Assembly: GCA_963664875.1 (NCBI GenBank)
Contig: OY761611.1
Location: 1,344,001-1,408,000 of the forward strand
Source: Candidatus Kapaibacterium sp.
GTDB lineage: Bacteria; Bacteroidota; Ignavibacteria; Kapaibacteriales; UBA2268
Length of the DNA stretch: 64,000 nucleotides
Direction: 5' to 3'
The notes beneath the pieces are model-generated. The model worked only from the letters and a program-made list of their open reading frames with translations, was not told the origin of the DNA and searched no databases. Shown here piece by piece: positions 34,515 through 51,661 of this stretch. The position numbers and the translations under genes are program-made. How positions within the stretch are numbered: the first letter of the stretch is position 1; each line of letters opens with the position of its first letter.

Positions 34515-34664
34515 ATGAGAGCTATATCTAAAAAGATGATATCATCAGTGCAAGATGTGGATGCTGTTGATATATTTCTGCATTTAACAAATCCTAATAA
34601 CAAATGGATTTTCAATTCTTTACCCAATCTTTTAGTACAGAGTAGGAGGCAGCATGGAAAATAA
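34515..34664 (+). CDS. Small ORF (49 aa) coupled to the primase gene
   Basis: AAGGAGG RBS, MRAISKKMISS...QHGK*; overlaps the primase start by 11 nt; below the ORF-track cutoff. Confidence 0.5.
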   Translation: MRAISKKMISSVQDVDAVDIFLHLTNPNNKWIFNSLPNLLVQSRRQHGK

Positions 34665-35601
34665 ATCTTTCAGTAGTAATAGGACTAGTTGTCCTGAATG
34701 CGGAGCAAAAAGGGCATTTGCAGAATATGATGATGGCTCAGGTGGATATTGTCATTCATGTGGTAAAACTGTTATGTATAACTCGACTAAAAAGCAAGGT
34801 AAGCAAATGAAAAAACAACAAGAGAAGAGTCAATTGTTACAAACTATTACTCTTGAGCAATTTAATGAGTTAAGATCATGTGATGATTCAAATTTTAACG
34901 AGTATTTTGGTGAGCTATTTGGTGATGCTTTTAACAAACATTGTAATGATAATTATTTTTTAAGAGCTGATGATTATGGTGCAACAATCTTTACTTTTAT
35001 AGATTCTCAGGGATTTATTAGAAATTTAAAAAGCATGGCATACAAACAAGATGGTCATAGAGATAAGGTGGGATTTGTTCTAAAAATCAAGGAGAAAGAG
35101 ACTACTATACCTGTATTTTATGGATATCGATATGCAAAAAAAGGAAAATACGATATGATTAAATCCACTTCTGTGAAGAAACATTATTCACAGTGCCTGT
35201 TTGGTGAATACTACCTCAATTCACACAACTACATGATTGTAGGAGATCGAACCTATAAGTATGATGACAAGACCCCAGTTATATTATTAGAATCAGAAAA
35301 ATCTGTCTTAATATCTTCATTTCATTATCCATCTGTCATCTTCCTTGCAACAGGTGGAACGAATGGGTTAACAGAAGAAAAAGCGGAAATATTGAAAGAT
35401 AGAATTGTTTATATCATGTTTGACAACGAAGAAAAAGCTCAACTGAGAGCTGAAAAGGCAAAGATTGTTTTGACAGGAATTGCAAAGTCGGTTGATATAA
35501 TTGATATTTTCAAAAATTACAAGGTTGAAGAAGGTTATGATTTAGCTGATATTTTAGAACAACAAGCAATTTTAAGAGGAGAACAGAAAGATGACAAATA
35601 A
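34654..35601 (+). CDS. Primase-like protein (Zn finger + TOPRIM/DUF6371-like)
   Basis: CPECG...CHSCG; QCLFGE, LESEKS, LATGG, FDNE and GYDLAD motifs. Confidence 0.8.
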   Translation: MENKSFSSNRTSCPECGAKRAFAEYDDGSGGYCHSCGKTVMYNSTKKQGKQMKKQQEKSQLLQTITLEQFNELRSCDDSNFNEYFGELFGDAFNKHCNDNYFLRADDYGATIFTFIDSQGFIRNLKSMAYKQDGHRDKVGFVLKIKEKETTIPVFYGYRYAKKGKYDMIKSTSVKKHYSQCLFGEYYLNSHNYMIVGDRTYKYDDKTPVILLESEKSVLISSFHYPSVIFLATGGTNGLTEEKAEILKDRIVYIMFDNEEKAQLRAEKAKIVLTGIAKSVDIIDIFKNYKVEEGYDLADILEQQAILRGEQKDDK

Positions 35602-36652
35602 TTTAAAACCGATAAGAGAATTCAATCTTATTCAAGAGTTGAATAACTATAATCACAAAAAGATTAAACAAAACACAATGAATTTTCGATTGGAACAAGC
35701 TGCTAATCAACCTCAGATGGAAGAATTATTTGGTTCTTATTTACAACGTGGAGAAATTTCAATAATCGCAGGTAACACAGGAGATGGTAAATCCACTTTA
35801 GCAGTTCAAATTGCTGACAGAATCACAAGGCAAAAAGGAATATGGAATGAAGTGAATACGCAAAAATATCCAATAATATACTATGATTTTGAGATGTCAG
35901 ACCAATCATTGCTAAAAAGATATCAATCTTATACTTTCGAATCTAACTTTTATTGTCCTGACGTTAGTGAAATTATTAAGAATTCAAATGGCGTATTTTC
36001 TATAGATACAATCAAGAATGATATCAACACTTTTGATGCTAATATAATCTTTATCGATAATATTACTGCAATGTCGCAAAAATCAACAATTGATCAAGAC
36101 TCTGCAAATAAACTAATGCGTGGATTAAAAACTCTACAAAGTACGTACAATACCACTATTTGTGTGTTAGCTCATGTGCCTAAAATTCCAAGTAATGTTC
36201 CTTTGCATATTAACCATGTCGCAGGGAGTAAAAATATTGTAAATTTTGCAGATAGTGTGCATATAATCGGACAGAGCAATCAATTACCTAATAGACGTTA
36301 TCTGAAGCAAGTTAAAAATCGTAATTCAGAAATGGAATCACAGGTAATGGTTATAGATTTAATCTGCGAAGATTATCTTCATTTTGATTTTATCAAGATG
36401 GATGATGAACGTAATCATATCGATGTTGATACGATTATGGAAGATAATAAGAAAAATAAACATATTGACATTGCTAATGAATTGATTGGTACTGATGCAA
36501 TAAAATACACTGATTTTGTAGATAATTACGCAAAAAAATACAATAAATCGATTGAAACGGGTAAGAAAGCAATTCAATATTTGAAGTTACACAATATAAT
36601 ACAGCAGAACGAATCGAAAGAATGGGAAGTCAATCCTGACTATCTAATTTAG
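35591..36652 (+). CDS. AAA_25/RepA-type replicative helicase
   Basis: Walker A GNTGDGKS, YYDFEM, Walker B IFIDNIT, LAH, AGSK...FADS and KNR motifs. Confidence 0.85.
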   Translation: MTNNLKPIREFNLIQELNNYNHKKIKQNTMNFRLEQAANQPQMEELFGSYLQRGEISIIAGNTGDGKSTLAVQIADRITRQKGIWNEVNTQKYPIIYYDFEMSDQSLLKRYQSYTFESNFYCPDVSEIIKNSNGVFSIDTIKNDINTFDANIIFIDNITAMSQKSTIDQDSANKLMRGLKTLQSTYNTTICVLAHVPKIPSNVPLHINHVAGSKNIVNFADSVHIIGQSNQLPNRRYLKQVKNRNSEMESQVMVIDLICEDYLHFDFIKMDDERNHIDVDTIMEDNKKNKHIDIANELIGTDAIKYTDFVDNYAKKYNKSIETGKKAIQYLKLHNIIQQNESKEWEVNPDYLI

Positions 36653-37864: not shown

Positions 37865-38593
37865 ATGAGAATAGTAGTAGAGTTAGAATCTTCTAATCAT
37901 ATTCTATTACCACATTCTATCAATAGTGTTATACAGTCTTTTTTATATAATGTAGTAAAAGGTGATTCTGAATTTGATGAGATGCACAAAAGTATCAGTT
38001 ATAAAAATTTTACGTTTTCAACGATTCGAGAACGATTCCGAAAAGTAGAAGGTGGAAGACTATATGGAAATTCTATATCTTTTGTCTTCTCAACCAACCA
38101 GCAAACATTAATAAATACATTACTGAACAGTATAATGTTCGCTTCAAATTTAGATTTAGCAGGCAATTCAGTAAGATTCAAATCTGTCTCACCAATTCAG
38201 AAGAAATCCTTTACTACAACCGAGAAAATGAAGACATTAAGTCCAATAACTGTCTACGATGATATTGTGAATTCCGAAGGTAAAAAGTTTAGGAGCTATT
38301 GTTTAGATGTGCATTCTGAAAGATTCACAAGATTACTTCGCAACAATCTGATAAGAAAAGCAAGTAAACTTTATAATTGGGATTTATCGGATTCTGAATT
38401 TGAGATTGAATGCTTATCAAACCCAAAAATTGTCTCTGCGACTTATAAGCATAAGAATAATGTGATTAAAGGCATCGATGCAATATTTAAGCTTACTGGT
38501 GATGAAAGATTGATTCAAGTTGCTTATGAAGTTGGCTTAGGCAGTAAAAATGCTCAGGGTTGGGGTTGTATAGAATTTGCAGGAGAAAAATAA
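37865..38593 (+). CDS. cas6: CRISPR endoribonuclease Cas6
   Basis: YKNFTFS, TLSPI and C-terminal Gly-rich loop GLGSKNAQGWG. Confidence 0.93.
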   Translation: MRIVVELESSNHILLPHSINSVIQSFLYNVVKGDSEFDEMHKSISYKNFTFSTIRERFRKVEGGRLYGNSISFVFSTNQQTLINTLLNSIMFASNLDLAGNSVRFKSVSPIQKKSFTTTEKMKTLSPITVYDDIVNSEGKKFRSYCLDVHSERFTRLLRNNLIRKASKLYNWDLSDSEFEIECLSNPKIVSATYKHKNNVIKGIDAIFKLTGDERLIQVAYEVGLGSKNAQGWGCIEFAGEK

Positions 38594-40467
38594 TGTTTTT
38601 AAATGCTTTATACGAAATTGGTGAATATCATAAAAAAAACATACTTAACAAAGGTGGTCTTCCTGAGCTCACTTTGAAAGAGGTACAATATCTTCATAAA
38701 ACAGGTACATATCAAAAGGTTGTAATTATGAATATACAAAGTTCCAATAGCACAGTATCCTTTTCAACCGAGGAATTAGAATCGACCGGAGATCACTCTC
38801 TACACTATTTATACAAATATCGTAATGGCTCCCAAGCAGGTAACGAATTTTCTTTTACTAACAAAATAAATATACAAAAAGAAAAGGATAAGAATAAAGA
38901 GAAAGCTGAAATCGATTGGAACAAATTCTTCAACTACTATAAAGCTAACAAAAATTCTTGGATTACTTGGTTAGAAGCTTGCATAGCTGAAGAATTTTAT
39001 CAAACAACTCAAAATATATTAAGAGCAATCATTCAAAATATTGAGAATATCAAATCTTATATTGAGACCTTATTTACGAATGATGATACTTTTAAAAAAG
39101 GCTGCATTTTTACGGTAAAATATAACGGTAAATATTTAAACGAAATCAAAGAGTGCGTTGAATGTTTTGACTATTGTGTGCAAAAACACAATAAGTCAGG
39201 AAACACAGAGCCAAATGTTTGCTGCTCTTTTTGCGGAAGTAACCAAAATGTCAGATATGGTATTCCAGAAGCATTCAAATTCGCAACCATAGATAAAGAA
39301 GGATTCGCAACTGACTTCAATGTTGACACAAATAGGGATTATCCAGTTTGTATCGAATGTCGTACAATCTTGACTTCAGGAAGACAATTTATTGATGATA
39401 ATTTGTCTTATTATTTCCACGGCTTAAAATATAAGGTTGTTCCACACTCTGTTTTTAAATCAGAAGTGTTGCTTGACAATATGTTATATAACTTAAAAGA
39501 AGCCAAAAATCCAAATTTATCTCAAAATCACTCTAATTTTATGTCTGATCCTGATGGTATCATTGAAGAAGCTTCTGAACTAAACAATAGTGTATTGTTA
39601 AATTTAGTGTTTTTATCACAGAAAGGCGTCGGTGGTGAACAAATTGATCTACTTATGCAAGATGTACTTCCAACTCGCTTAGCTGCGATAATAAAAGTAA
39701 AACATGATTTAGAAAATATGTACCCCTATAAAACGAAAGATGGTGAAATTAAACATATGCTTTTCAATATGGGCACAATCTTCAATTTTTACCAACATAA
39801 GAAAAGTAAAAATGCACCATTTGATAAATCATTTTTCGAACTTGTGGAAGCTATATTTAAAGGTGGTAAACTTAATAAAGATTTGATTGTCTCTAAGTTC
39901 ATGGATAAAATTCGGGAAGATGTTTATGAACCAGACAAAAAGCACCCCCATAACTACACTAAAGATTCCATAAGAATAATGCAATTCCTATCAAAATTAG
40001 ATATAGTAGATTTCAAATATAAAGGTAAACCTATGAAAGACAATATTTTCAAAGAATATTTTGAGCAAATAGGCATAGTCGATTCTTCATACTTAGCGGG
40101 CGTAATGCTTATCGGAGCCTTAGTAACCAAAGTTCGTATAGTACAGAAAGAAAATCTGGACAATGATCCCTTCAAGAAAAATCTAAAAGGATACAATTTA
40201 AACCGTGATGAGATTATTTTGCTTGCTAATAAAGTAAAAGCGAAGTTAGAAGAGTATAATGCTTTTAAAGGAACTGAAAATATAATTTTTGGAACTGCTT
40301 TTAAGCTTATGATGGATGCAACTCCAGTATCAAATGCCATGTCAAACTGGTATCTGATTGGTGGCATGAGTTTAGAATATGAAATTATGGGCATAGCAAT
40401 CGAATACCTAAAATCGCAAAAACCAAACTCTCAAGCAGAAGAACAAGAAAGCAATGAATCCAATTAA
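38593..40467 (+). CDS. cas8b: Type I-B Cascade large subunit Cas8b (Csh1-like)
   Basis: Start MFLNALYEIG coupled to the cas6 stop; CSFC...FKFATIDKEGF...YPVCIEC Zn motif; lies between cas6 and cas7. Confidence 0.85.
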   Translation: MFLNALYEIGEYHKKNILNKGGLPELTLKEVQYLHKTGTYQKVVIMNIQSSNSTVSFSTEELESTGDHSLHYLYKYRNGSQAGNEFSFTNKINIQKEKDKNKEKAEIDWNKFFNYYKANKNSWITWLEACIAEEFYQTTQNILRAIIQNIENIKSYIETLFTNDDTFKKGCIFTVKYNGKYLNEIKECVECFDYCVQKHNKSGNTEPNVCCSFCGSNQNVRYGIPEAFKFATIDKEGFATDFNVDTNRDYPVCIECRTILTSGRQFIDDNLSYYFHGLKYKVVPHSVFKSEVLLDNMLYNLKEAKNPNLSQNHSNFMSDPDGIIEEASELNNSVLLNLVFLSQKGVGGEQIDLLMQDVLPTRLAAIIKVKHDLENMYPYKTKDGEIKHMLFNMGTIFNFYQHKKSKNAPFDKSFFELVEAIFKGGKLNKDLIVSKFMDKIREDVYEPDKKHPHNYTKDSIRIMQFLSKLDIVDFKYKGKPMKDNIFKEYFEQIGIVDSSYLAGVMLIGALVTKVRIVQKENLDNDPFKKNLKGYNLNRDEIILLANKVKAKLEEYNAFKGTENIIFGTAFKLMMDATPVSNAMSNWYLIGGMSLEYEIMGIAIEYLKSQKPNSQAEEQESNESN

Positions 40468-40485: not shown

Positions 40486-41439
40486 ATGAGTAATATTAAA
40501 TCTTCAGAAATCATATTTTTATATGACTTAGAAAAATGCAATCCAAATGGTGATCCAATAGCCAACAACTTACCAAGAATAGATGAAGAAACATCAAAAG
40601 TTTATGCAACCGATGTTTTTCTTAAGCATCATATAAGAGAGTACATGTATCAGAATACAATTCCGAAATTAGATGGTAATTTTGACATCTGGGTCAGAGA
40701 TACAAGAGAAGAAAATGGTGGGAAAGTAGTTGATGCAAAGAAGAGATATGAAAGTCTTAATATAAGTGCAAAAGATGATAAAGCTAAAGAAGAATTCTTA
40801 GAAAGATGCCTAGATGCACAAATGTTCGGTGCAGTAGTACCACTAAAAAAGGAAAACTATCATTTAACTGGAGCTTGGCAGTTTATGAATATCAAATCTT
40901 TACATCAAGTAGATGTAATTACAGATAAAGGTATTACTACTTTTGCTTCAGGTGATAATAAATCTCAAGGAACTTTCAGAGAAGATCACTACGTGAATTA
41001 TGCTTTGATGCAATCATATAGCAGAGTAAATGCAAATGCTGCCGAGAAAAATCTATTAAAACAAGAAACTTTAGATGCTGGTTTAGAAGCTATGTGGTAT
41101 GGAATCAAAAATTTAAATACACGTAGTAAATTGGGTCATGATTCTAAGTTACTTTTAGTTGTAGAATACAAAACAAACAATCGTTTTATTGGAAACAAAC
41201 TTAACAATTCCATAACTCTCACACTTAAGGATGGTGTAATCACAGAGAAAGGTATCAGAGCAGGTTCTGATTATAACCTTAATATGGATGCTTTACAAAA
41301 TCTATTAGTATCGAATAAATCTATTATCCACAAAATTAAATTTCACTACGAAGCTCATGATCCTCACGTTTCTTCATTTAAGGATTTTAAAGCTAATTTA
41401 CAAAAAGAAGGTATAGAGATTGAAGATTTAAAATACTAA
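40486..41439 (+). CDS. cas7: Type I-B Cas7 (Csh2)
   Basis: NPNGDP...LPRIDEET...TDVFLKHHIREY, FGAV and TRSKLG motifs. Confidence 0.93.
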   Translation: MSNIKSSEIIFLYDLEKCNPNGDPIANNLPRIDEETSKVYATDVFLKHHIREYMYQNTIPKLDGNFDIWVRDTREENGGKVVDAKKRYESLNISAKDDKAKEEFLERCLDAQMFGAVVPLKKENYHLTGAWQFMNIKSLHQVDVITDKGITTFASGDNKSQGTFREDHYVNYALMQSYSRVNANAAEKNLLKQETLDAGLEAMWYGIKNLNTRSKLGHDSKLLLVVEYKTNNRFIGNKLNNSITLTLKDGVITEKGIRAGSDYNLNMDALQNLLVSNKSIIHKIKFHYEAHDPHVSSFKDFKANLQKEGIEIEDLKY

Positions 41440-41448
41440 GGTGAAAAA

Positions 41449-42156
41449 ATGAAAGTTCTCATTTTCGAAATAAGTGGTGAGTTTGCACATTTCAAACCTT
41501 ATGATACAACTTCAACCAAGCTAAGTTACCCATTCCCAACTCCACCAACTGTTTTAGGAATGATTGGTGCCATTTTAGGTTTGTCAAAGCAAGATCAGCA
41601 GTATCTAAAAATATTGAACGATGCTAATACTAAAGTAGCTGTTTCAATTTTGAACCCAGTCAAAAAGTTACATTGGGGCTTAAATCTTCTAAATACAAAA
41701 GGTAACATTGTTGACTTATCTAACGGTCATACTCAAGTATTGACCGAGTTTATTAAAGATGCTCGTTATAGAATTATTGTGTCAATGGAAAAGCAAGATT
41801 TATATAATTCTCTCAAAGAAAGATTAGAAAAGAAAGAGTCTTATTATGATCTGTGCTTGGGTATCACAGAATGTTTAGCTGACTTTGAATTTGTAGGAGA
41901 ATACGAAGCAAGTCTGAACAAATATAATTCTATCGAAGTAGATTCTGTTATACCCATAGACGAATCAATCGAAAACAAGATAGACTTTACATCAGTACAA
42001 GAAAAAATAACAATGCCAAGAATACCATATAAAATGGAAGTAGGAAGAATTGCATCTTATAGGAATGTACTTGTGAACGAAGGAGCCAAACCAATAGCAA
42101 TAAAAAATATAGAATGTTATACGACTGATGTTTGCAATTTCTTGTTTTTGAATTGA
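41449..42156 (+). CDS. cas5: Type I-B Cas5
   Basis: FEISGEFAHFK...LSYPFPTPPTVLGMIGAILG. Confidence 0.93.
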   Translation: MKVLIFEISGEFAHFKPYDTTSTKLSYPFPTPPTVLGMIGAILGLSKQDQQYLKILNDANTKVAVSILNPVKKLHWGLNLLNTKGNIVDLSNGHTQVLTEFIKDARYRIIVSMEKQDLYNSLKERLEKKESYYDLCLGITECLADFEFVGEYEASLNKYNSIEVDSVIPIDESIENKIDFTSVQEKITMPRIPYKMEVGRIASYRNVLVNEGAKPIAIKNIECYTTDVCNFLFLN

Positions 42157-42157
42157 T

Positions 42158-44494
42158 ATGATTATGTTACTATCTCATCCAGACACTATATTATCAGACC
42201 ACCTCGAAGGAGTGCTGCTCAATTCTGTTCGTATGTACGAAGAAATGAATATCACTTCTTCATATGGTGTTGATTATTTAAAAGTTGTAAAGTTGGTAGC
42301 TTTGTTTCACGATTTCGGGAAGTGTACTAATTATTTCCAAAATTATATTCGTGGAGATAAAAGTGGAAGTTCTCTTTTAAGACAACATTCCATATTAAGT
42401 GCTATTGTAGTTTCACATTTAGTTATATCAGTTGTTGAAAGTAAACATGCAGAAGAACTTTCACTTTATGCTTTTCTCTCAGTATTGTATCATCATGGTA
42501 ATCTTAATAACTTATATAATAAATTGCTTGGAATCAATAGCAATGATACAATTGTATTACTCAGCCAACAAATAAATGCAGTATCCTTTGATTCAGTAAA
42601 CGAATGCTATAATCCACTGCTCAAAGATTACTTATCTATTGATATCACTTTTACGGCTGAAAAGCTGACAGAATATATTGATACTCTAAAATCTTCAATA
42701 CGTAAACTCAACAAAACTTTAAGGAAAATAAAAGAAACAAACTCTTTTGAATCTTATCTGCATTTGATGACATTCTGGTCTTTACTTGTTGATGCAGATA
42801 AAAAACATGCAAACTTCAAAGAGGTATTGCAAAAGCATTCGTCTAAAATTGATACAGATGCTGCTAAAAAGTACATTATGAAATTTCCAAAAGACGAATC
42901 ACCGATGTGTAAACTTAGAACAGAAGCTTTTGAGACAGTTGAACAGAATATTCTAAAATCATCAGACAAAGCTGATATTTTTAGCGTAGAATTGCCTACC
43001 GGAGCAGGAAAGACACTAAACGTTTTGAATGCAGCACTTCGATTGAGAAATAAAAGGTATGATGAAACCGGGAAGTACAAAAAAATTATAAACGGTCTGC
43101 CGTTTTTATCAATCATTGATCAAACAGCAAAAGTCTATAGAGACGTATTTGATTTAGATGACAGCAATTCAGATGTTATGACTGTTCAGCACTCTTTGGC
43201 TGACTATTCCTTATTCAAACAGGGGGATGTCGAATATAAAGATGATTCCAGAGCGGAGATGCTAATCGAAACATGGGAATCTGAGATAATAGTTACCACA
43301 TTTGTGCAAATATTCCATACCTTGTTTACCAATAAAAACGGCAATGCAAGGAAATTCCATACAATATCCAATTCAATTTTAGTATTAGATGAGGTTCAAG
43401 CTATTCCTTCTAAATATCATAAACTTGTAAATGAGATGTTTCAAGCTTTAGTTAAAGTTTACAACACTGATATTATTACAATGACTGCTACTAATATTTA
43501 CGAGTTCGATAATGCAAAACGTTTATGTGATGCTACATTTTATAATGACTTAGATAGAATTGTTTTGAAATATTTTGATGATGTACTAACAGTCGAAGAA
43601 TTCTTTCAAAAGCTTGATTTGCAGGCAGACAAATCTTATATGTTTGTTATGAATACAATCAAAAGTGCTAAAATACTGCACCAATTGCTGTCTGATTCAC
43701 TACAGGAAGAAGTTGCCTTCTTATCGACAGAGATTATTCCATTTCAGAGATTAGGTATCATATCTGATATTAAGAATAAAAAATATAGATTTTTGGTTAC
43801 AACGCAACTTATCGAAGCTGGAGTAGATGTTACATTTGATGTTGTCTATCGTGATATGACCAGAATGGATTCAATTGTGCAAACAGCAGGCAGATGTAAT
43901 AGGCATTACACAGATAAACAAGGAGAAGTAAATGTTATTAAGCTGAAAGACAAAAGAAAAGAGTATGCAGAGTATATTTATGATTCAATGGACTTATTCC
44001 AAACATCTGAAACGCTTAAAACATATCTTGATGGACAGAACATGATTCGAGAATCTAATTTTTACAATCTAATAAAAGACTTTAGTGCAAAACTACAGGC
44101 AAAAACAACAGATTCAAATGCTTATATTGAAGCAGTAAATCAGTTAAAATTTATCAACTCACAGGAAGACAAATATAATATTGCAACATTCAAACTGATA
44201 GATAATTCTGATTATGAGAAAATAGATGTGTTTGTAGAGTATAATCAGGAAGCCGTTGATATTTGGCAAAAGTATATGCAAATCAAGAAAATTGAAAATA
44301 GATTTGACAGGAAACTACAGTTTAAGCTTATTAAAAATATCTTCCAGAAGTATGTGATTAGCGTTTCAAAGCAAAGATATTGTACGGATTCAAATGCAGA
44401 TGGATTATATTATATACCGCAAGGGCAATTAGAATTTTCATATGGGAAGGTCGGTTTCATGGGATTTGGGCTTGAAGCAAATAATATAATTTAG
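42158..44494 (+). CDS. cas3: Cas3 HD nuclease-helicase
   Basis: HDFGK and HHG HD motifs, LPTGAGKT, DEVQ, MTAT and QTAGRCNR. Confidence 0.95.
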   Translation: MIMLLSHPDTILSDHLEGVLLNSVRMYEEMNITSSYGVDYLKVVKLVALFHDFGKCTNYFQNYIRGDKSGSSLLRQHSILSAIVVSHLVISVVESKHAEELSLYAFLSVLYHHGNLNNLYNKLLGINSNDTIVLLSQQINAVSFDSVNECYNPLLKDYLSIDITFTAEKLTEYIDTLKSSIRKLNKTLRKIKETNSFESYLHLMTFWSLLVDADKKHANFKEVLQKHSSKIDTDAAKKYIMKFPKDESPMCKLRTEAFETVEQNILKSSDKADIFSVELPTGAGKTLNVLNAALRLRNKRYDETGKYKKIINGLPFLSIIDQTAKVYRDVFDLDDSNSDVMTVQHSLADYSLFKQGDVEYKDDSRAEMLIETWESEIIVTTFVQIFHTLFTNKNGNARKFHTISNSILVLDEVQAIPSKYHKLVNEMFQALVKVYNTDIITMTATNIYEFDNAKRLCDATFYNDLDRIVLKYFDDVLTVEEFFQKLDLQADKSYMFVMNTIKSAKILHQLLSDSLQEEVAFLSTEIIPFQRLGIISDIKNKKYRFLVTTQLIEAGVDVTFDVVYRDMTRMDSIVQTAGRCNRHYTDKQGEVNVIKLKDKRKEYAEYIYDSMDLFQTSETLKTYLDGQNMIRESNFYNLIKDFSAKLQAKTTDSNAYIEAVNQLKFINSQEDKYNIATFKLIDNSDYEKIDVFVEYNQEAVDIWQKYMQIKKIENRFDRKLQFKLIKNIFQKYVISVSKQRYCTDSNADGLYYIPQGQLEFSYGKVGFMGFGLEANNII

Positions 44495-44620
44495 TCGTCT
44501 GGCTCGTATAATACAAAAATCACTGAACCTCGACGACTTATTTATTGGAGTTTGAGATACTTTTCTAATGCTACGAACGATACGATTTATTAAAATAGCT
44601 TGTTCTTTGAAAATTTGAGG
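44493..44620 (+). promoter_or_regulatory. CRISPR leader
   Basis: AT-rich non-coding region between cas3 and the first repeat; AGTCGTC...GACGACT inverted motif (44493-44538) of the kind seen in I-B leaders. Confidence 0.75.
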
Positions 44621-45244
44621 ATAGAAATACCTGCTATAAGCAGGGATGATTTGTCAGATTGTTCGCCTCTGATGCTGTTAGCTGTATAGAAATACCTGCT
44701 ATAAGCAGGGATGATGGTATATCACGAGTTGGTACACCACCATCGTAGGTATAGAAATACCTGCTATAAGCAGGGATGATGATGCAGTTGATATTGATAT
44801 TGAACCGACAGAGCAAATAGAAATACCTGCTATAAGCAGGGATGATATAGTGGTTTATAACAATGGTGAAAAAGTTACTTTTGAATAGAAATACCTGCTA
44901 TAAGCAGGGATGATTCAATTCTTTCTGGTCTATCTAATCCGAATAATTCTATAGAAATACCTGCTATAAGCAGGGATGATATGTTCTTTATGTACTTCAT
45001 TCCACTTGGAAAGTTCATAGAAATACCTGCTATAAGCAGGGATGATGGATTAAACAAAGCTCTAAAATCGCAAGGTCGTTCAATAGAAATACCTGCTATA
45101 AGCAGGGATGATTTTTCTAATTCTCCTATATAAAAAAAGCGGTCTGTATAGAAATACCTGCTATAAGCAGGGATGATTTAAGTAAGCATACATACTAAGG
45201 CAACCTGCTTCTTGATAGAAATACCTGCTATAAGCAGGGATGAT
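44621..45244 (+). CRISPR. CRISPR block 1: 10 chimeric repeats ATAGAAATACCTGCTATAAGCAGGGATGAT, 9 spacers (35-38 bp)
   Basis: Repeats at 44621, 44686, 44751, 44817, 44885, 44951, 45017, 45083, 45148 and 45215; the last 10 nt equal the IS left end. Confidence 0.97.
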
Positions 45245-46426
45245 TTGTTCTTTGTAAATATCATATAATATAGTAAATTATAGAAAGCCAAACACAAACT
45301 TTTCTAATCTGGGGGGATTTATGGAAAAGCAAACGTTAGTAAATTATCTTGATAAGTTGACAGATAAGCGTCGCAGGGAAGGCACACGCCATAATCAATC
45401 ATTTGTATTATTGCTGGTTTTGATGGCGACTATGAGCGGACAATATGGCTATCGTGGCATAGAAAGATTTATAAAGAAGAATGCCGAAGACATACTGAAA
45501 TATTTAAAGCCTCATAAAGATAGATTACCAACTTACGCAACAATTTTTAGAGTGGTAAATAATATAGATTTTGATGAATTTGCACAGATTTTTAAAGAGT
45601 GGTCAAAAGTTTATGCAAAGCCTCAAAGCGGTGAAATAATCAGTATAGATGGCAAAGCTTTGAAAGGCACATTAGTAGAATACAATTCGAAATACCAGAA
45701 CTTTATAAGCATTGTTTCTGCACATTCTCAATCAAGTAAAATGTCACTAAGTATAAGCAAATATGAGAATAAAAAATCAAGCGAGATAAGCGTAGTTGAA
45801 GAAATGATTAGAGATTTAGAACTGACTGGCGTAGTCTTTACAATGGATGCTTTACACTGTCAAAAAAACTCTAAGAACAATTGTTAGTACTAACAACAAC
45901 TATATTATTTGCGTAAAAAAGAATCAAGGTCGTTTGTACAAAGAACTGGAGAGTTTGAGTTCGAGCTGGTCAACAAAGATCGATTATTATAAAACCGAAG
46001 AAACTAATAGAGACAGACGAGAAACTCGTAAAGTATATGTATATTCATTAAACGATAAAATTAAGAACGAGTGGTCCGGATCACAGCAATTAGTAAAGGT
46101 ACAAAGGATTAGAAAAACAAAACAAATGCAGGAAGTTCATGTACATTATTATTTGAGCAGTCAAGAAAAACCAGCAAAGTATTATATGCAGAGCATACGA
46201 GGACATTGGGGCATTGAAAACCAGCTACATTGGGTAAAGGATGTGGTAATGAAAGAAGATGCTTGGAAAGTGAGAAATACACAAGCAGCTTCAGTCATGA
46301 GTATAATAAAGTCAATTTGTATCAATATTTTTAGGTCAAAGAAGCGTATTGATTGTACCAACTTTTTCTATGAGACTGCCGACAATGTAGAACTATTGGT
46401 GACTTTGTTAGAATGAATCAACCCTG
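45235..46426 (+). mobile_element. ISAs1-family insertion sequence, copy 1 (1192 bp)
   Basis: Terminal IRs CAGGGATGATTTGTTCT and AGAATGAATCAACCCTG (14/17); 10-bp TSD CTGCTATAAG at 45225-45234 and 46427-46436. Confidence 0.95.
45321..46416 (+). CDS. ISAs1 transposase split into two frames at an A7 run
   Basis: ORFs 45321-45887 (IDGKALKG, TMDALHCQK) and 45847-46416 (VKKNQ, RGHWGIENQLHWVKDV). Confidence 0.9.
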
Positions 46427-46965
46427 CTGCTATAAGGGGTTTAAACTAAAAGGCAATAAGCTGTATTTGACGTTAGGACTTGATAGAAATACCTGCTATA
46501 AGGGGTTTAAACTTTGGTAATGATGCTAAGAGCTGCAGCACATCACTAATAGAAATACCTGCTATAAGGGGTTTAAACGAAGGCAGCCATGATGACATGG
46601 TAGATGCGACAACAATAGAAATACCTGCTATAAGGGGTTTAAACTTATTTCACCTCTGTGATAAAATTTTCAGCACTAAGATAGAAATACCTGCTATAAG
46701 GGGTTTAAACAATTCTAATGAATATTCTTTAGCTGTTTCCCGTGCAAATAGAAATACCTGCTATAAGGGGTTTAAACGAAATTAAAGAAAAAAAACTATT
46801 AGATTTTGCTGAATAGAAATACCTGCTATAAGGGGTTTAAACTAGACTTCAACTGAGACATAAACTGAGAAATATTAAATAGAAATACCTGCTATAAGGG
46901 GTTTAAACCATTCATTAAAAACTTACAATAAAAAAGCATGGAAAAATAGAAATACCTGCTATAAG
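46427..46965 (+). CRISPR. CRISPR block 2: canonical repeat ATAGAAATACCTGCTATAAGGGGTTTAAAC, 7 full and 2 partial repeats, 8 spacers
   Basis: Full repeats at 46483, 46549, 46615, 46681, 46748, 46813 and 46879. Confidence 0.97.
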
Positions 46966-48157
46966 CAGGGATGATTTGTTCTTTGTAAATATCATATAAT
47001 ATAGTAAATTATAGAAAGCCAAACACAAACTTTTCTAATCTGGGGGGATTTATGGAAAAGCAAACGTTAGTAAATTATCTTGATAAGTTGACAGATAAGC
47101 GTCGCAGGGAAGGCACACGCCATAATCAATCATTTGTATTATTGCTGGTTTTGATGGCGACTATGAGCGGACAATATGGCTATCGTGGCATAGAAAGATT
47201 TATAAAGAAGAATGCCGAAGACATACTGAAATATTTAAAGCCTCATAAAGATAGATTACCAACTTACGCAACAATTTTTAGAGTGGTAAATAATATAGAT
47301 TTTGATGAATTTGCACAGATTTTTAAAGAGTGGTCAAAAGTTTATGCAAAGCCTCAAAGCGGTGAAATAATCAGTATAGATGGCAAAGCTTTGAAAGGCA
47401 CATTAGTAGAATACAATTCGAAATACCAGAACTTTATAAGCATTGTTTCTGCACATTCTCAATCAAGTAAAATGTCACTAAGTATAAGCAAATATGAGAA
47501 TAAAAAATCAAGCGAGATAAGCGTAGTTGAAGAAATGATTAGAGATTTAGAACTGACTGGCGTAGTCTTTACAATGGATGCTTTACACTGTCAAAAAAAC
47601 TCTAAGAACAATTGTTAGTACTAACAACAACTATATTATTTGCGTAAAAAAGAATCAAGGTCGTTTGTACAAAGAACTGGAGAGTTTGAGTTCGAGCTGG
47701 TCAACAAAGATCGATTATTATAAAACCGAAGAAACTAATAGAGACAGACGAGAAACTCGTAAAGTATATGTATATTCATTAAACGATAAAATTAAGAACG
47801 AGTGGTCCGGATCACAGCAATTAGTAAAGGTACAAAGGATTAGAAAAACAAAACAAATGCAGGAAGTTCATGTACATTATTATTTGAGCAGTCAAGAAAA
47901 ACCAGCAAAGTATTATATGCAGAGCATACGAGGACATTGGGGCATTGAAAACCAGCTACATTGGGTAAAGGATGTGGTAATGAAAGAAGATGCTTGGAAA
48001 GTGAGAAATACACAAGCAGCTTCAGTCATGAGTATAATAAAGTCAATTTGTATCAATATTTTTAGGTCAAAGAAGCGTATTGATTGTACCAACTTTTTCT
48101 ATGAGACTGCCGACAATGTAGAACTATTGGTGACTTTGTTAGAATGAATCAACCCTG
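46966..48157 (+). mobile_element. ISAs1-family insertion sequence, copy 2 (1192 bp, apparently identical to copy 1)
   Basis: Same IRs and length, identical translated ORFs; TSD CTGCTATAAG at 46956-46965 and 48158-48167. Confidence 0.95.
47052..48147 (+). CDS. ISAs1 transposase split into two frames at an A7 run
   Basis: ORFs 47052-47618 and 47578-48147, identical to copy 1. Confidence 0.9.
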
Positions 48158-50490
48158 CTGCTATAAGGGGTTTAAACTTGAGATATTATTGTAAAATTGT
48201 GATTATTTGATTTCATAGAAATACCTGCTATAAGGGGTTTAAACGAGTGCAAAGTGTTCCATTCTTGTCGAGCCATACGGAATAGAAATACCTGCTATAA
48301 GGGGTTTAAACCTAATATATATTTTCATTATTCACTCCTAAATTGATAATAGAAATACCTGCTATAAGGGGTTTAAACACTACTGTGTTGAAAGATATGT
48401 TAAATGCCATATCAGATAGAAATACCTGCTATAAGGGGTTTAAACATATATTCAGTAAGAAGTTTTAAACAAGACCCATTAATAGAAATACCTGCTATAA
48501 GGGGTTTAAACTTTATAATGTCGTAATCTTTGTTAGCCTGAATGTTAATAGAAATACCTGCTATAAGGGGTTTAAACTCTGCTTCCTTATGTGATTTGCG
48601 GGTAGTACTACTATAGAAATACCTGCTATAAGGGGTTTAAACGCAAAGTTGTGCATTTTAGAAGCGACTGGCAACTCATAGAAATACCTGCTATAAGGGG
48701 TTTAAACTCGTTTTGATGCCGTTTACAACTGTGCCGATGCCTGCATAGAAATACCTGCTATAAGGGGTTTAAACGCAGCTGCAACCGGGTCATCGAGCGA
48801 TACATTGAATATAGAAATACCTGCTATAAGGGGTTTAAACATGCTTTTTGATATATTATTTGGCATTTGCAATTGAATAGAAATACCTGCTATAAGGGGT
48901 TTAAACAAGTTTGGAGTTTTCAATTTCATGTCTTCGAACAAATAGAAATACCTGCTATAAGGGGTTTAAACAAATTGATTTGAACGGCGTTGCATTCAGC
49001 ACGTCAAATAGAAATACCTGCTATAAGGGGTTTAAACACGTTTGCGGCTCTAATGCCTGCTTTTAAAAAGCTCAATAGAAATACCTGCTATAAGGGGTTT
49101 AAACGTAGATTATACTTCGGAGGAATCAGTAGAATTGATAATAGAAATACCTGCTATAAGGGGTTTAAACTTAACGAATTGGTCATTAACATAACCGATT
49201 GTTTGCGGATAGAAATACCTGCTATAAGGGGTTTAAACTGTTGAAGAGGAATGGAAGCATATTACTTGTCCTCGATAGAAATACCTGCTATAAGGGGTTT
49301 AAACGAATCAATCTCAATAAACAATATATTACTTTTAGTAATAGAAATACCTGCTATAAGGGGTTTAAACTGTTGAAGAGGAATGGAAGCATATTACTTG
49401 TCCTCGATAGAAATACCTGCTATAAGGGGTTTAAACAAAGCTGTGCCGGGGTTCGCTTAAATCTCTGATAAATAGAAATACCTGCTATAAGGGGTTTAAA
49501 CATCACTAATGAAGTCAGATTGAAGGTAGCTCGTTCGATAGAAATACCTGCTATAAGGGGTTTAAACTTGGCTGAACCGCTACGAGGCAATGGTATTGAT
49601 TTAATAGAAATACCTGCTATAAGGGGTTTAAACATGAATGCCGAGGCAGTAGAGGGGCGTGCAAGGCGTATAGAAATACCTGCTATAAGGGGTTTAAACG
49701 ACGTTCTGATATTAAGTCTTTGTCCAATCTGTACGAATAGAAATACCTGCTATAAGGGGTTTAAACAATATTGTTTTGTTAAAAGCTATCTCGAAAACTA
49801 TAATAGAAATACCTGCTATAAGGGGTTTAAACTCGTTTTTACCTGTTTTTTCTTTTGTTCCATTTTGATAGAAATACCTGCTATAAGGGGTTTAAACGTA
49901 ACTCCGTGCCAATCTCACTAAATATATTTGCATATAGAAATACCTGCTATAAGGGGTTTAAACTCAAAACTCTTAATCATATCAATACCGACTTCACTTA
50001 TAGAAATACCTGCTATAAGGGGTTTAAACCAATATTTCGAGCAGATACGAAACGATGCCGAGTTTATAGAAATACCTGCTATAAGGGGTTTAAACTTGTC
50101 AGCTATTGACAAAATGCTCAATGAAGCAGAATAGAAATACCTGCTATAAGGGGTTTAAACAATTCTGAAACATATTTTGCAATTTTTTTTAGTTTTATAG
50201 AAATACCTGCTATAAGGGGTTTAAACTTGACTACATTGTTTTCTTTACATATTCTAAATACCTATAGAAATACCTGCTATAAGTGGTTTAAACATCGAAA
50301 CTTACGGCAATGTAGCGACTGCTCTGAATATAGAAATACCTGCTATAAGGGGTTTAAACACAGTTAAAAGGTTTACTTGTCATGTGATAATAGAATAGAA
50401 ATACCTGCTATAAGGGGTTTAAATTGTGCTGACTGTATCGAATTTACGGTAGAAAATGAAATAGAAATACCTGCTATAAGGAGTTTAATT
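48158..50490 (+). CRISPR. CRISPR block 3: canonical repeat, 1 partial and 35 full repeats, 35 spacers, degenerate trailer end
   Basis: Repeats every ~65-68 bp from 48215 to 50461; variants at 50264, 50395 and 50461 mark the old end. Confidence 0.97.
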
Positions 50491-50543
50491 GAATATCGGT
50501 GGTGCAATTTATTAAGGAGAAAATACCACATTTATTTCAGTGC

Positions 50544-50635
50544 AGTAAGCCACTAATTTTGACAAAAATACAAAATTTATGTTTTTTATCTTCAGCATTT
50601 GTAGTCAATTTTATGCAAGACTAGTTAGCAAATGG
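50544..50635 (+). repeat. Imperfect direct repeat, right flank of the CRISPR-Cas module
   Basis: Matches 37396-37489. Confidence 0.8.
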
Positions 50636-50707: not shown

Positions 50708-51661
50708 ATGATAATATTTAGTCAACTAAAAACGGATTTCATCATGTCAAAAAATACAATTCCATCAAATTCAGCAATTGATTTCCAACATCTCTTCAAC
50801 GAGTTGGTGTATCATTACTTCCCTACTCCAATGATTAATTATCATCTTGAGCGATTTGAAACAAAAGATGATAAGATCCTTTATTTAAAAGAAATGCAAA
50901 TTCGTTTTTATCATCTAACACTAATAAAATGTGACTATTGCGAACAGACAAAAGATATACCATTACTTCATACAGAAGCACGACCGAATTTCCATGATTA
51001 TCGTATAAGTATCAGTAATGTTAAAGTTGATGATAACTTCAAGCACTACATCTACGGACCACTCAAATTCAATGATGTAGAAGCTACAAAAGTATTTAAC
51101 AGATTTGATATACTTCTAAACAGAACACTCATGCTGTTCAAACCTGATCCGACGTTTTTAACGAACTGGGAAGAAGTAAAGGGACATCTGCAAAATATTA
51201 GTTCTGTCAAGAACAAAAAGAAGTATTTGCTGCAATTAAACTCAAACTTCAACAACCACCCTCATTATTGGGGCACAAGAGAAGAACAGGAATCTTTCAA
51301 GAAATTGCTTTCTGCAAAATATCAAAAACTTAAGCAGATAGTATTTGAAGCAAGTGCAGAACCAACATTCAAAAAACAAGAAAAAGTTGAATCCCAAAAT
51401 TTGGAAAAGCAGAGAGCTGAACAAACAACAAGTTCTGACAGAGCAAAACAAAAAACATCTTTTGCAGAGAACAATTCCAATGACTTCATAAAAATAGAGG
51501 AAGTAACGCAAATACTAAAAATTTGCAAACCTACAGTTTACAGCTATCGCAATAAAGGTTTGATACAGTCATACAAAATGGGTAGAAATGTCTATTATAA
51601 AAGAAGTGAAATCTTTGAAGCACTAAATAATGGCAAAGTAAAGTATGGTAAAACTAAGTAA
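50708..51661 (+). CDS. Protein with C-terminal excisionase-like HTH_17 domain
   Basis: FIKIEEVTQILKICKPTVYSYRNKGLIQSYKMGRNVYYKRSEI at the C-terminus; adjacent to the att site. Confidence 0.75.
   Translation: MIIFSQLKTDFIMSKNTIPSNSAIDFQHLFNELVYHYFPTPMINYHLERFETKDDKILYLKEMQIRFYHLTLIKCDYCEQTKDIPLLHTEARPNFHDYRISISNVKVDDNFKHYIYGPLKFNDVEATKVFNRFDILLNRTLMLFKPDPTFLTNWEEVKGHLQNISSVKNKKKYLLQLNSNFNNHPHYWGTREEQESFKKLLSAKYQKLKQIVFEASAEPTFKKQEKVESQNLEKQRAEQTTSSDRAKQKTSFAENNSNDFIKIEEVTQILKICKPTVYSYRNKGLIQSYKMGRNVYYKRSEIFEALNNGKVKYGKTK

Follow-up and report, generated by a model that had tools for sequence, protein, structure and literature searches.

In the window analysed here, 64,000 nucleotides of Candidatus Kapaibacterium sp. 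(contig OY761611.1, positions 1,344,001 to 1,408,000), a type I-B CRISPR array has kept growing with a repeat that is one-third transposon DNA. The array, here called array A, occupies 44621-50490. Its leader-proximal block of 44621-45244 contains ten hybrid repeats, all identical, and each 30-nt hybrid is made of nt 1-20 of the CRISPR repeat and the first 10 nt of an insertion sequence (IS) of the ISAs1 family. We propose that an ISAs1-family IS preferring short CC-N9-GG palindromic sites entered the array after nt 20 of the then leader-proximal repeat, and that a second copy entered an internal repeat at the same position. The Cas1-Cas2-Cas4 machinery of a second locus would recognise the related leader of array A and keep integrating spacers at the leader-repeat junction, with the second cut falling 30 bp from that junction regardless of the distal sequence. 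Every integration would then duplicate 20 nt of true repeat together with the first 10 nt of the IS, giving ten identical hybrid repeats and nine new spacers. If the CRISPR RNAs (crRNAs) of this block are impaired, adaptation into array A would become uncoupled from array A interference. We give this explanation as a whole, from IS insertion through adaptation in trans and 30-bp copying to the uncoupling of adaptation from interference, a probability of roughly 0.8.

Array A and its hybrid repeats

Scripted parsing of array A gave 53 repeat left halves, all on the + strand. The right part of the repeat is hybrid in 11 of the 53, ten in the leader-proximal block and one at the second IS junction, and standard or degenerate in the other 42. 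Outward from the leader, the array has 10 hybrid repeats, an IS copy, 7 standard repeats, a second IS copy, and 35 repeats. The leader (44495-44620, + strand) carries the motif TTGTTCTTTGAAAAT at 44600-44614 and is 77% identical to the leader of a congener, G004. Block 1 (44621-45244, + strand) has the ten identical hybrid repeats and nine unique spacers of 35-38 nt. Its first repeat (44621-44650, + strand) reads ATAGAAATACCTGCTATAAGCAGGGATGAT, that is, ATAGAAATACCTGCTATAAG followed by CAGGGATGAT, and its tenth (45215-45244, + strand) is the real junction of repeat and IS. Beyond the first IS copy, the right part of the split, formerly leader-proximal repeat (46428-46446, + strand) consists of the duplicated TGCTATAAG plus GGGTTTAAAC. 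Block 2 (46447-46965, + strand) follows, with 8 spacers, 7 standard repeats, and the left 20 nt of the repeat split by IS copy 2 (46946-46965). The right part of this second split repeat and then block 3, with 35 spacers and 35 repeats, lie at 48159-50490 on the + strand. Repeats 52 and 53 are degenerate, ending ...TTTAAAT and ...GGAGTTTAATT, and mark the trailer end. The array is polarised, with the leader on one side, the degenerate repeats on the other, and the hybrid block uninterrupted next to the leader. Directly behind each IS copy is a spacer whose upstream repeat lacks its 5' two-thirds, and at least one IS copy (one or two) lies between the leader and each of the 43 older spacers.

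A first-pass annotation had described the leader-proximal repeat as a chimera of CRISPR repeat and IS end, and this was borne out, since the 30-mer is composed of repeat nt 1-20 and IS nt 1-10. All seven copies of the IS in the genome start with CAGGGATGAT, which shows that the last 10 nt of the hybrid repeat are IS and not repeat. All ten hybrid units, each immediately preceded by the leader or a spacer, begin with ATAG. Beyond position 30 the bases differ from unit to unit, so that the length copied is exactly 30 bp in 10 of 10 cases. The repeat of G004 has the standard end ...AAGGGGTTTAAAT, which indicates that the standard form is the ancestral one.

Identical spacers occur inside array A at 49239-49274 and 49371-49406, and the G004 array has one tandem duplicate spacer and one irregular unit. 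In array B, the array of the second locus, a three-spacer block is repeated nine units apart (B124-126/B133-135), and B144/B145, B253/B259, and B52/B60 are further duplicates. These duplicates within arrays point to internal duplications or to repeated uptake. A search with the left 20 nt of the array A repeat gave one unrelated single match in each of genome_contigs and metagenome_contigs, and, with E values up to 0.1 allowed, Rfam matched zero families in 44400-50600. A scan for sigma-70 promoters, with 6 sites versus 9.9 in shuffles, is uninformative for the leader.

Insertion sequences and their target sites

IS copy 1 (45235-46427, + strand; 1193 bp) is assigned to the ISAs1 family by NF033564, PF13808, and PF01609. 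IS copy 2 (46966-48158, + strand) has 0 mismatches to copy 1 and is inserted at the same repeat position in the same orientation. The inverted ends of copy 1 are CAGGGATGATT and AATCAACCCTG, and the terminal inverted repeats CAGGGATGATT and CAGGGTTGATT agree in 10 of their 11 positions. The element encodes an ISAs1-type DDE transposase (NF033564, 122.7 bits against a cut-off of 70, on the first open reading frame (ORF); PF13808 and PF01609 on the two ORFs). The transposase ORF is not single and uninterrupted; it lies in two frames, 45321-45887 and 45847-46416, as ORFs of 188 and 189 aa, with a change of frame within 45860-45890, at a seven-A run near 45862-45868. The six identical IS copies of the genome all share this frame change, though the IS evidently spread recently, and the frame change may be bridged during expression. 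The target duplication, TGCTATAAG, corresponds to repeat nt 12-20. It is direct and flanks both array-A copies, at 45226-45234 and 46428-46436 for copy 1 and at 46957-46965 and 48159-48167 for copy 2.

The genome contains seven copies of the IS, six identical, both array-A copies among them, and one with 5 mismatches. A direct duplication of 9 bp (possibly 10 bp) is found at five of the seven, and the other two have inverted flanks. The target sites have the form CC-N9-GG, and four of the five copies outside array A lie in the palindrome CCCCTC(AA/TT)GAGGGG, of which the genome has 16 intact copies. The CRISPR repeat contains such a site, CC-TGCTATAAG-GG, and the preference thus accounts for two independent insertions at one repeat position.

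Three of the seven IS copies are inside CRISPR arrays, and the arrays together make up well under 1% of the genome. This excess may reflect target preference, selection for array disruption, or both. The third of these copies (G000:C1:2173057-2174249, in genome coordinates) lies inside a spacer of array B that carries the preferred palindrome, CCCCTCAAGAGGGG. Inverted rather than direct 9-bp flanks, CTCAAGAGG and CTCTTGAGG, are seen at two IS copies. The inverted IS copies at 2078469-2079661 and 2085320-2086512, about 7 kb apart, have exchanged flanks, such that the left flank of one is the reverse complement of the right flank of the other, which suggests an IS-mediated inversion.

Probable adaptation from a second locus

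Array A begins 126 bp past the cas3 stop codon, and in the ORF list its locus has no cas4, cas1, or cas2; it is an effector-plus-array module. The genome is a single closed contig of 3.83 Mb, in which Cas1, Cas2, and Cas4 have one match each, all at 2.155-2.157 Mb, about 770 kb from array A. They belong to a second locus of divergent type I, with cas6, a 204-aa unassigned ORF, cas3, a 458-aa unassigned ORF, a weak Cas7 match, cas4, cas1, and cas2. The cas1 of this locus matches the HMARI-type I-B model with 430.5 bits. Array B (G000:C1:2157125-2176348) adjoins the locus and has 273 repeats, with a 30-nt repeat, CATCTAATCGCACCACTGTAGTATTGAAAT, that differs from the array A repeat.

Since cas1, cas2, and cas4 are absent from the array A locus, new spacers would have reached array A by adaptation in trans from the second locus. 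The four aligned leaders, those of arrays A and B in this genome and in G004, have GTTCTTTGA.AA.TT invariant. Furthermore, array B contains counterparts of 2 of the 52 array-A spacers, at 35/36 and 34/36 identity and with 5' boundary and orientation unchanged, and in G004 the spacers of the A array also match the B-array region. Spacer lengths are 35-38 nt in block 1 and 34-38 nt in array B, with a mode of 36 in each, and the G + C content is alike. In G004, the effector locus (78% DNA identity) runs from cas3 to leader to array, again without cas4, cas1, and cas2, and the Cas1 orthologue adjoins an array whose repeat is identical to that of array B. The same split arrangement in the congener argues that the split is ancestral and not a recent deletion. 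With a sole integrase, a shared leader motif, shared spacers, the split in G004, and similar spacer length and composition, the adaptation machinery of the second locus probably serves both arrays. If adaptation occurs in trans, the growth of array A need not depend on array A crRNAs.

The IS itself carries a related stretch. IS nt 11-20, TTGTTCTTTG (45245-45254 of the window), equal the core of the leader motif that all four CRISPR arrays have in common, and the stretch is also kept in an 81%-identical IS homologue of another genome, G001. There are 30 copies of TTGTTCTTTG in the genome, 7 of them within IS copies, versus about 15 expected. The agreement could be coincidental or reflect a promoter-like element common to both, and the excess over expectation is too small to decide.

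Constant length of the duplicated unit

The last repeat base in array B, which is handle position -1, changes in blocks: reading from the leader end, T gives way to A at 2166040, to G at 2172796, and to T again at 2174593. In all, 159 repeats end in T, 100 in A, and 10 in G, and there are 4 single variants. These long consecutive blocks of end-base variants show that the first repeat is the template for new repeats. In block 1, the duplication runs from the leader-repeat junction, and its size stays constant with the distal third of the repeat replaced (10 of 10 units). The constant 30-bp size of the chimera thus points to a ruler-type repeat duplication. A precedent is the type I-B system of Haloarcula hispanica, for which Wang et al. 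(2016, PMC4872114) describe a 30-bp duplication that begins at the leader junction and terminates sequence-independently. In that report, the mutant repeats Rm21-25 and Rm26-30 were still duplicated at 30 bp, with the altered sequence copied into the new repeat.

Fold and 5' handle of the hybrid repeat

In the first hybrid repeat, the arms CCTGCT (44630-44635) and AGCAGG (44639-44644) are exact reverse complements separated by the loop ATA. The first-pass annotation had claimed a stronger hairpin for the hybrid, and the folds agree: RNAfold gives the hairpin CCTGCT-ATA-AGCAGG (44630-44644, + strand) a 6-bp stem and -8.7 kcal/mol, a stability equalled by 1 of 200 shuffles. The standard repeat, ATAGAAATACCTGCTATAAGGGGTTTAAAC, folds with -4.1 kcal/mol, equalled by 40 of 200 shuffles, into CCU/AGG plus a weak outer AAAU/GUUU helix, and the G004 repeat has the same fold. 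The stronger hairpin is a by-product of the bases that meet at the IS junction, and we found no evidence of selection for it. In the terminator scan, the hairpin is terminator-like on the + strand at 3 of the 10 hybrid repeats, where T-rich sequence comes next; this is weak evidence on the consequences for the RNA. On the minus strand (44630-45238), all ten hybrid hairpins are followed by TATTTCTAT and are terminator-like in the scan, which found 13 sites on both strands of the region versus 1.1 expected. Antisense transcription into block 1 might be blocked by these minus-strand hairpins.

The same annotation had correctly noted that the 8-nt handle changes. The last 8 nt of the repeat go from GTTTAAAC in the standard form to GGGATGAT in the hybrid, and 8 of the 10 final positions differ. 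The handles of the standard repeats are GUUUAAAC in array A, AUUGAAAU in array B, and GUUUAAAU in G004. Positions -7, -6, -4, -3, and -2 are U, U, A, A, and A in both repeat families and both species, and -1 varies freely. The hybrid handle, GGGAUGAU, is no longer of this conserved kind, as it keeps only -2, and four of the five invariant positions (-7, -6, -4, and -3) are changed. If Cas6 cut at the base of the new stem, a 6-nt handle would remain. In Haloferax type I-B, the 5' handle is reported to be essential, with changes tolerated only at -8 and partly at -1, and the loss of two handle nucleotides is reported to inactivate the crRNA (PMC4326828). Given the replaced 5' handle, and a cleavage site that is now within a stable stem or adjacent to one, we predict, by analogy and with reasonable though not high confidence, that the block-1 crRNAs are poorly processed or loaded.

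Spacer targets

If the block-1 spacers had been acquired and never used, they might not have been purged by self-targeting, as the first-pass annotation suggested, and an enrichment for host-genome matches would be expected. This was not found; 0 of the 9 block-1 spacers have at least 20 identical nucleotides outside the arrays in the 3.83-Mb genome. The result gives no support to the idea that self-targeting spacers went unpurged, and it is not proof of function either. A blastn-short search of all 52 array-A spacers against the whole genome gave no spacer with at least 20 identical nucleotides outside the arrays other than two matches of 20/22 at chance level (A15 and A49; E 0.26-0.29). Against phages, block 1 matched only 9 Bacillus phage records with E of 0.2-0.6, which we take as chance, and block 3 gave zero matches; block 1 gave zero matches to plasmids. 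Three 24-nt spacer patterns had 0 matches each in viral_contigs (IMG/VR). The whole array, compared with 130 family genomes, matched only IS homologues, the G004 array, and short stretches with E no better than 2e-5, which coincide in part with repeats, the IS, or spacer sequence of low complexity, with no convincing protospacer.

Weighing of the explanation

Several points weigh against the explanation proposed above. P. furiosus-class Cas6 enzymes bind mainly the 5' end of the repeat, which is intact in the hybrid. Cas6 of this class is reported to bind unstructured RNA (PMC3479195), and binding of Cas6 to the hybrid repeat could, by this analogy, persist. The Haloferax handle data (PMC4326828) concern deletions and positions -8 and -1 only, not substitutions at -7 to -2. 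The nine spacers were fixed while six of the seven IS copies, including both in array A, stayed identical, and this fixation could be due to positive selection, hence function, rather than to hitch-hiking. No protospacer was found for the array-A spacers in the phages, the plasmids, the three 24-nt IMG/VR scans, or the 130 family genomes. A shorter, longer, or IS-free block 1 was not seen in any of four public sequencing runs that contain hybrid units. With regard to the ruler, the anchor described for Haloarcula hispanica is GTGGG at nt 18-22 (PMC4872114), which overlaps the nt 21-22 that are replaced here, and the motifs AACCC and GTGGG of that system are not present as such in this repeat. 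The hybrid has CAGGG 2 nt further downstream than the Haloarcula hispanica anchor, but its unit measures 30 bp instead of 32. This would place the anchor of the present system within the 20 bp that were kept or within the leader, unless recognition is loose. Finally, a single genome and a single congener underlie both the proposed order of events and the proposed trans action.

The alternative that survives best is co-option, in which the hybrid repeat works and selection fixed the nine newest spacers for the immunity that they confer. Cas6 would bind the intact 5' 20 nt and cut at or near the base of the new hairpin, and Cascade would tolerate the GGGAUGAU (or GAUGAU) handle. Many Cas6 enzymes do cut at the 3' base of a stem, and all five effector genes of the locus are intact, with full-length family matches. 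Among solved structures, the cas6 product is closest to 5yi6, 3qjj, and 3pkm of the P. furiosus / P. horikoshii class of Cas6, the class described as binding unstructured RNA, and the retained 20 nt include the part that is conserved with G004. Co-option would also account for nine sequential spacers becoming fixed with six of seven IS copies still identical. However, four of the five invariant handle positions are changed, and the 6 nt left by a cut at the stem base amount to the 2-nt shortening that the Haloferax type I-B handle is reported not to tolerate (PMC4326828). Furthermore, Cas6b enzymes are reported to have cleaved only their own repeats (PMC3479195). The growth of the array can be explained without function by Cas1-Cas2 acting in trans. 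Spacers that entered together with selected array-B spacers would hitch-hike, and the fixation of block 1 is thus not strong evidence of function. On balance, co-option appears unlikely, with about one chance in four on its side.

A particular form of a functional hybrid, in which the IS end has been exapted as a new 3' module of the repeat, with Cas6 cutting at the hairpin base and Cascade accepting a non-canonical handle, seems to us rather improbable. If it were true, block 1 would be the only leader-driven part of array A, as the 43 older spacers sit behind IS copies. It would also be a case, observed in nature, of a new functional variant of a CRISPR repeat arising out of transposon sequence, with the integrase supplied by another locus.

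We return to the proposed adaptation in trans, for which the alternative is that the adaptation genes once adjoined array A, made block 1, and were later deleted, with no trans action. The usual type I-B gene order ends with cas4-cas1-cas2 before the array, and the IS copies could mediate deletions. Against this, the cas3-leader-array junction of G004 is equally without the three genes, and leader homology extends all the way to the stop codon of cas3. No remnants of cas1, cas2, or cas4 were found elsewhere in the complete genome, and spacers are common to both arrays in both species. We regard such a deletion as very unlikely.

Hybrid repeat-spacer units were found with 0 differing letters in contigs of the public runs X1, X2, and X5, which represent three samples from two studies, and the contigs of run X7 have one such unit, also with 0 differing letters. 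Stretches that lack coverage in X5 and X7 carry no meaning. The units in X1, X2, and X5 are therefore no artefact of this single assembly, and the four runs may represent the same strain as this genome. One X2 contig matches the leader up to 44564 and then continues with 255 letters absent from this genome; it may be a leader insertion variant, another organism, or a chimeric contig. That block 1 is a mis-assembly, or a product of unequal recombination between the two IS junctions and not of spacer acquisition, is barely credible: two identical IS copies and many repeats are hard to assemble, and duplicated spacers do exist elsewhere in the arrays, but the genome is a single closed contig, single contigs span repeat-spacer-repeat in X1, X2, and X5, and the nine block-1 spacers differ from each other and from every other spacer, which recombination cannot create.

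The effector module and its surroundings

The genes upstream of array A, all on the + strand, are in the order cas6-cas8b-cas7-cas5-cas3, with cas3 last. The cas6 gene (37865-38593; 242 aa) matches TIGR01877 with 126.9 bits (cut-off 58.65) and PF01881. It is followed by cas8b of the TM1802/Csh1 type (38560-40467; TIGR02556, 183.5 bits, cut-off 156.95; PF09484, 271.4 bits), cas7 (Csh2; 40486-41439; TIGR02590, 188.4 bits, cut-off 171.55), and cas5 (Cas5h/Cas5b; 41449-42156; TIGR02592, 126.7 bits, cut-off 97). The cas3 gene (42158-44494) has the HD nuclease and the helicase, with 83.3 bits for TIGR01596 (over the cut-off) and 97 bits for TIGR01587 (just under the cut-off of 102.45). With its Cas8b signature, the locus is a Csh/Hmari-like effector module of type I-B. 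The listed TTG start of cas8b probably over-extends the ORF. The orthologue in G004 is a 611-aa ORF; a tblastn alignment had suggested that the G004 gene is broken, and we rejected this, as the two stops lie upstream of the 611-aa ORF.

Upstream of the cas genes, at 34654-36652, are genes that resemble those of a mobile element, for an AAA_25/DnaB-like ATPase and a protein with DUF6371. Downstream of array A, a 317-aa ORF (50708-51661) has a weak match, 27.9 bits and below the cut-off of 80, to the MAD1 helix-turn-helix domain of a methylation-associated defence system.

Relation to known systems

The case resembles the Haloarcula hispanica experiments in the 30-bp repeat, in the duplication from the leader-repeat junction, and in the tolerated replacement of distal sequence, and the Cas1 fits the HMARI-type I-B model. 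It differs from what is described there in that the event is natural, the IS end replaces all of nt 21-30, the host is a bacterium, and the integrase is at another locus with a different repeat. Adaptation in trans is known from Flavobacterium columnare, where, in the II-C/VI-B pair, a locus without acquisition genes is reported to gain spacers by way of the co-occurring system (PMC8092290). Here, in contrast, both partners are of type I, with different 30-bp repeats and related leaders, and the evidence is comparative only. An IS inside an array has a counterpart in the Sulfolobales, for which a review describes ISC1359 as having inserted into and inactivated a spacer under selection, with such events being very rare (PMC4390879). 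That review, as far as its account goes, does not describe continued acquisition with a hybrid repeat, whereas here three of seven IS copies are in arrays, two of them at the same repeat position, and the array kept growing. As for the handle, the repeats here are like that of Haloferax volcanii type I-B (Maier et al. 2014/2015, PMC4326828) in their 8-nt 5' handle, ending ...GAAGC or ...AAAC, and in the natural variation of position -1, which is C, T, A, or G among the repeats here. The Haloferax handle result applies to the bacterial Csh-type Cascade of this locus by analogy only.

Searches of literature listings and of cited passages returned no report of a natural array growing with an IS-derived hybrid repeat. 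What was known already comprises rare IS insertions in arrays, the experimental copying of mutated repeats, and adaptation in trans; what appears to be new is natural growth with a repeat that is part transposon. We regard the locus as a natural counterpart of the laboratory experiments with repeat mutants, a useful natural experiment and not a new principle. The laboratory rule, that Cas1-Cas2 copies whatever sits within a fixed distance of the leader, would here be acting in nature, on a repeat of which one-third is transposon DNA, nine times running. The locus offers a test of which repeat bases the integrase, Cas6, and Cascade each need in a bacterial type I-B system, and of whether memory formation can continue with the read-out broken. 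If the hybrid crRNAs are active, the locus would illustrate the recruitment of transposon sequence into a CRISPR repeat. If they are inactive, the spacer content of array A grows without immunity, which matters for the reading of arrays as records of effective defence.

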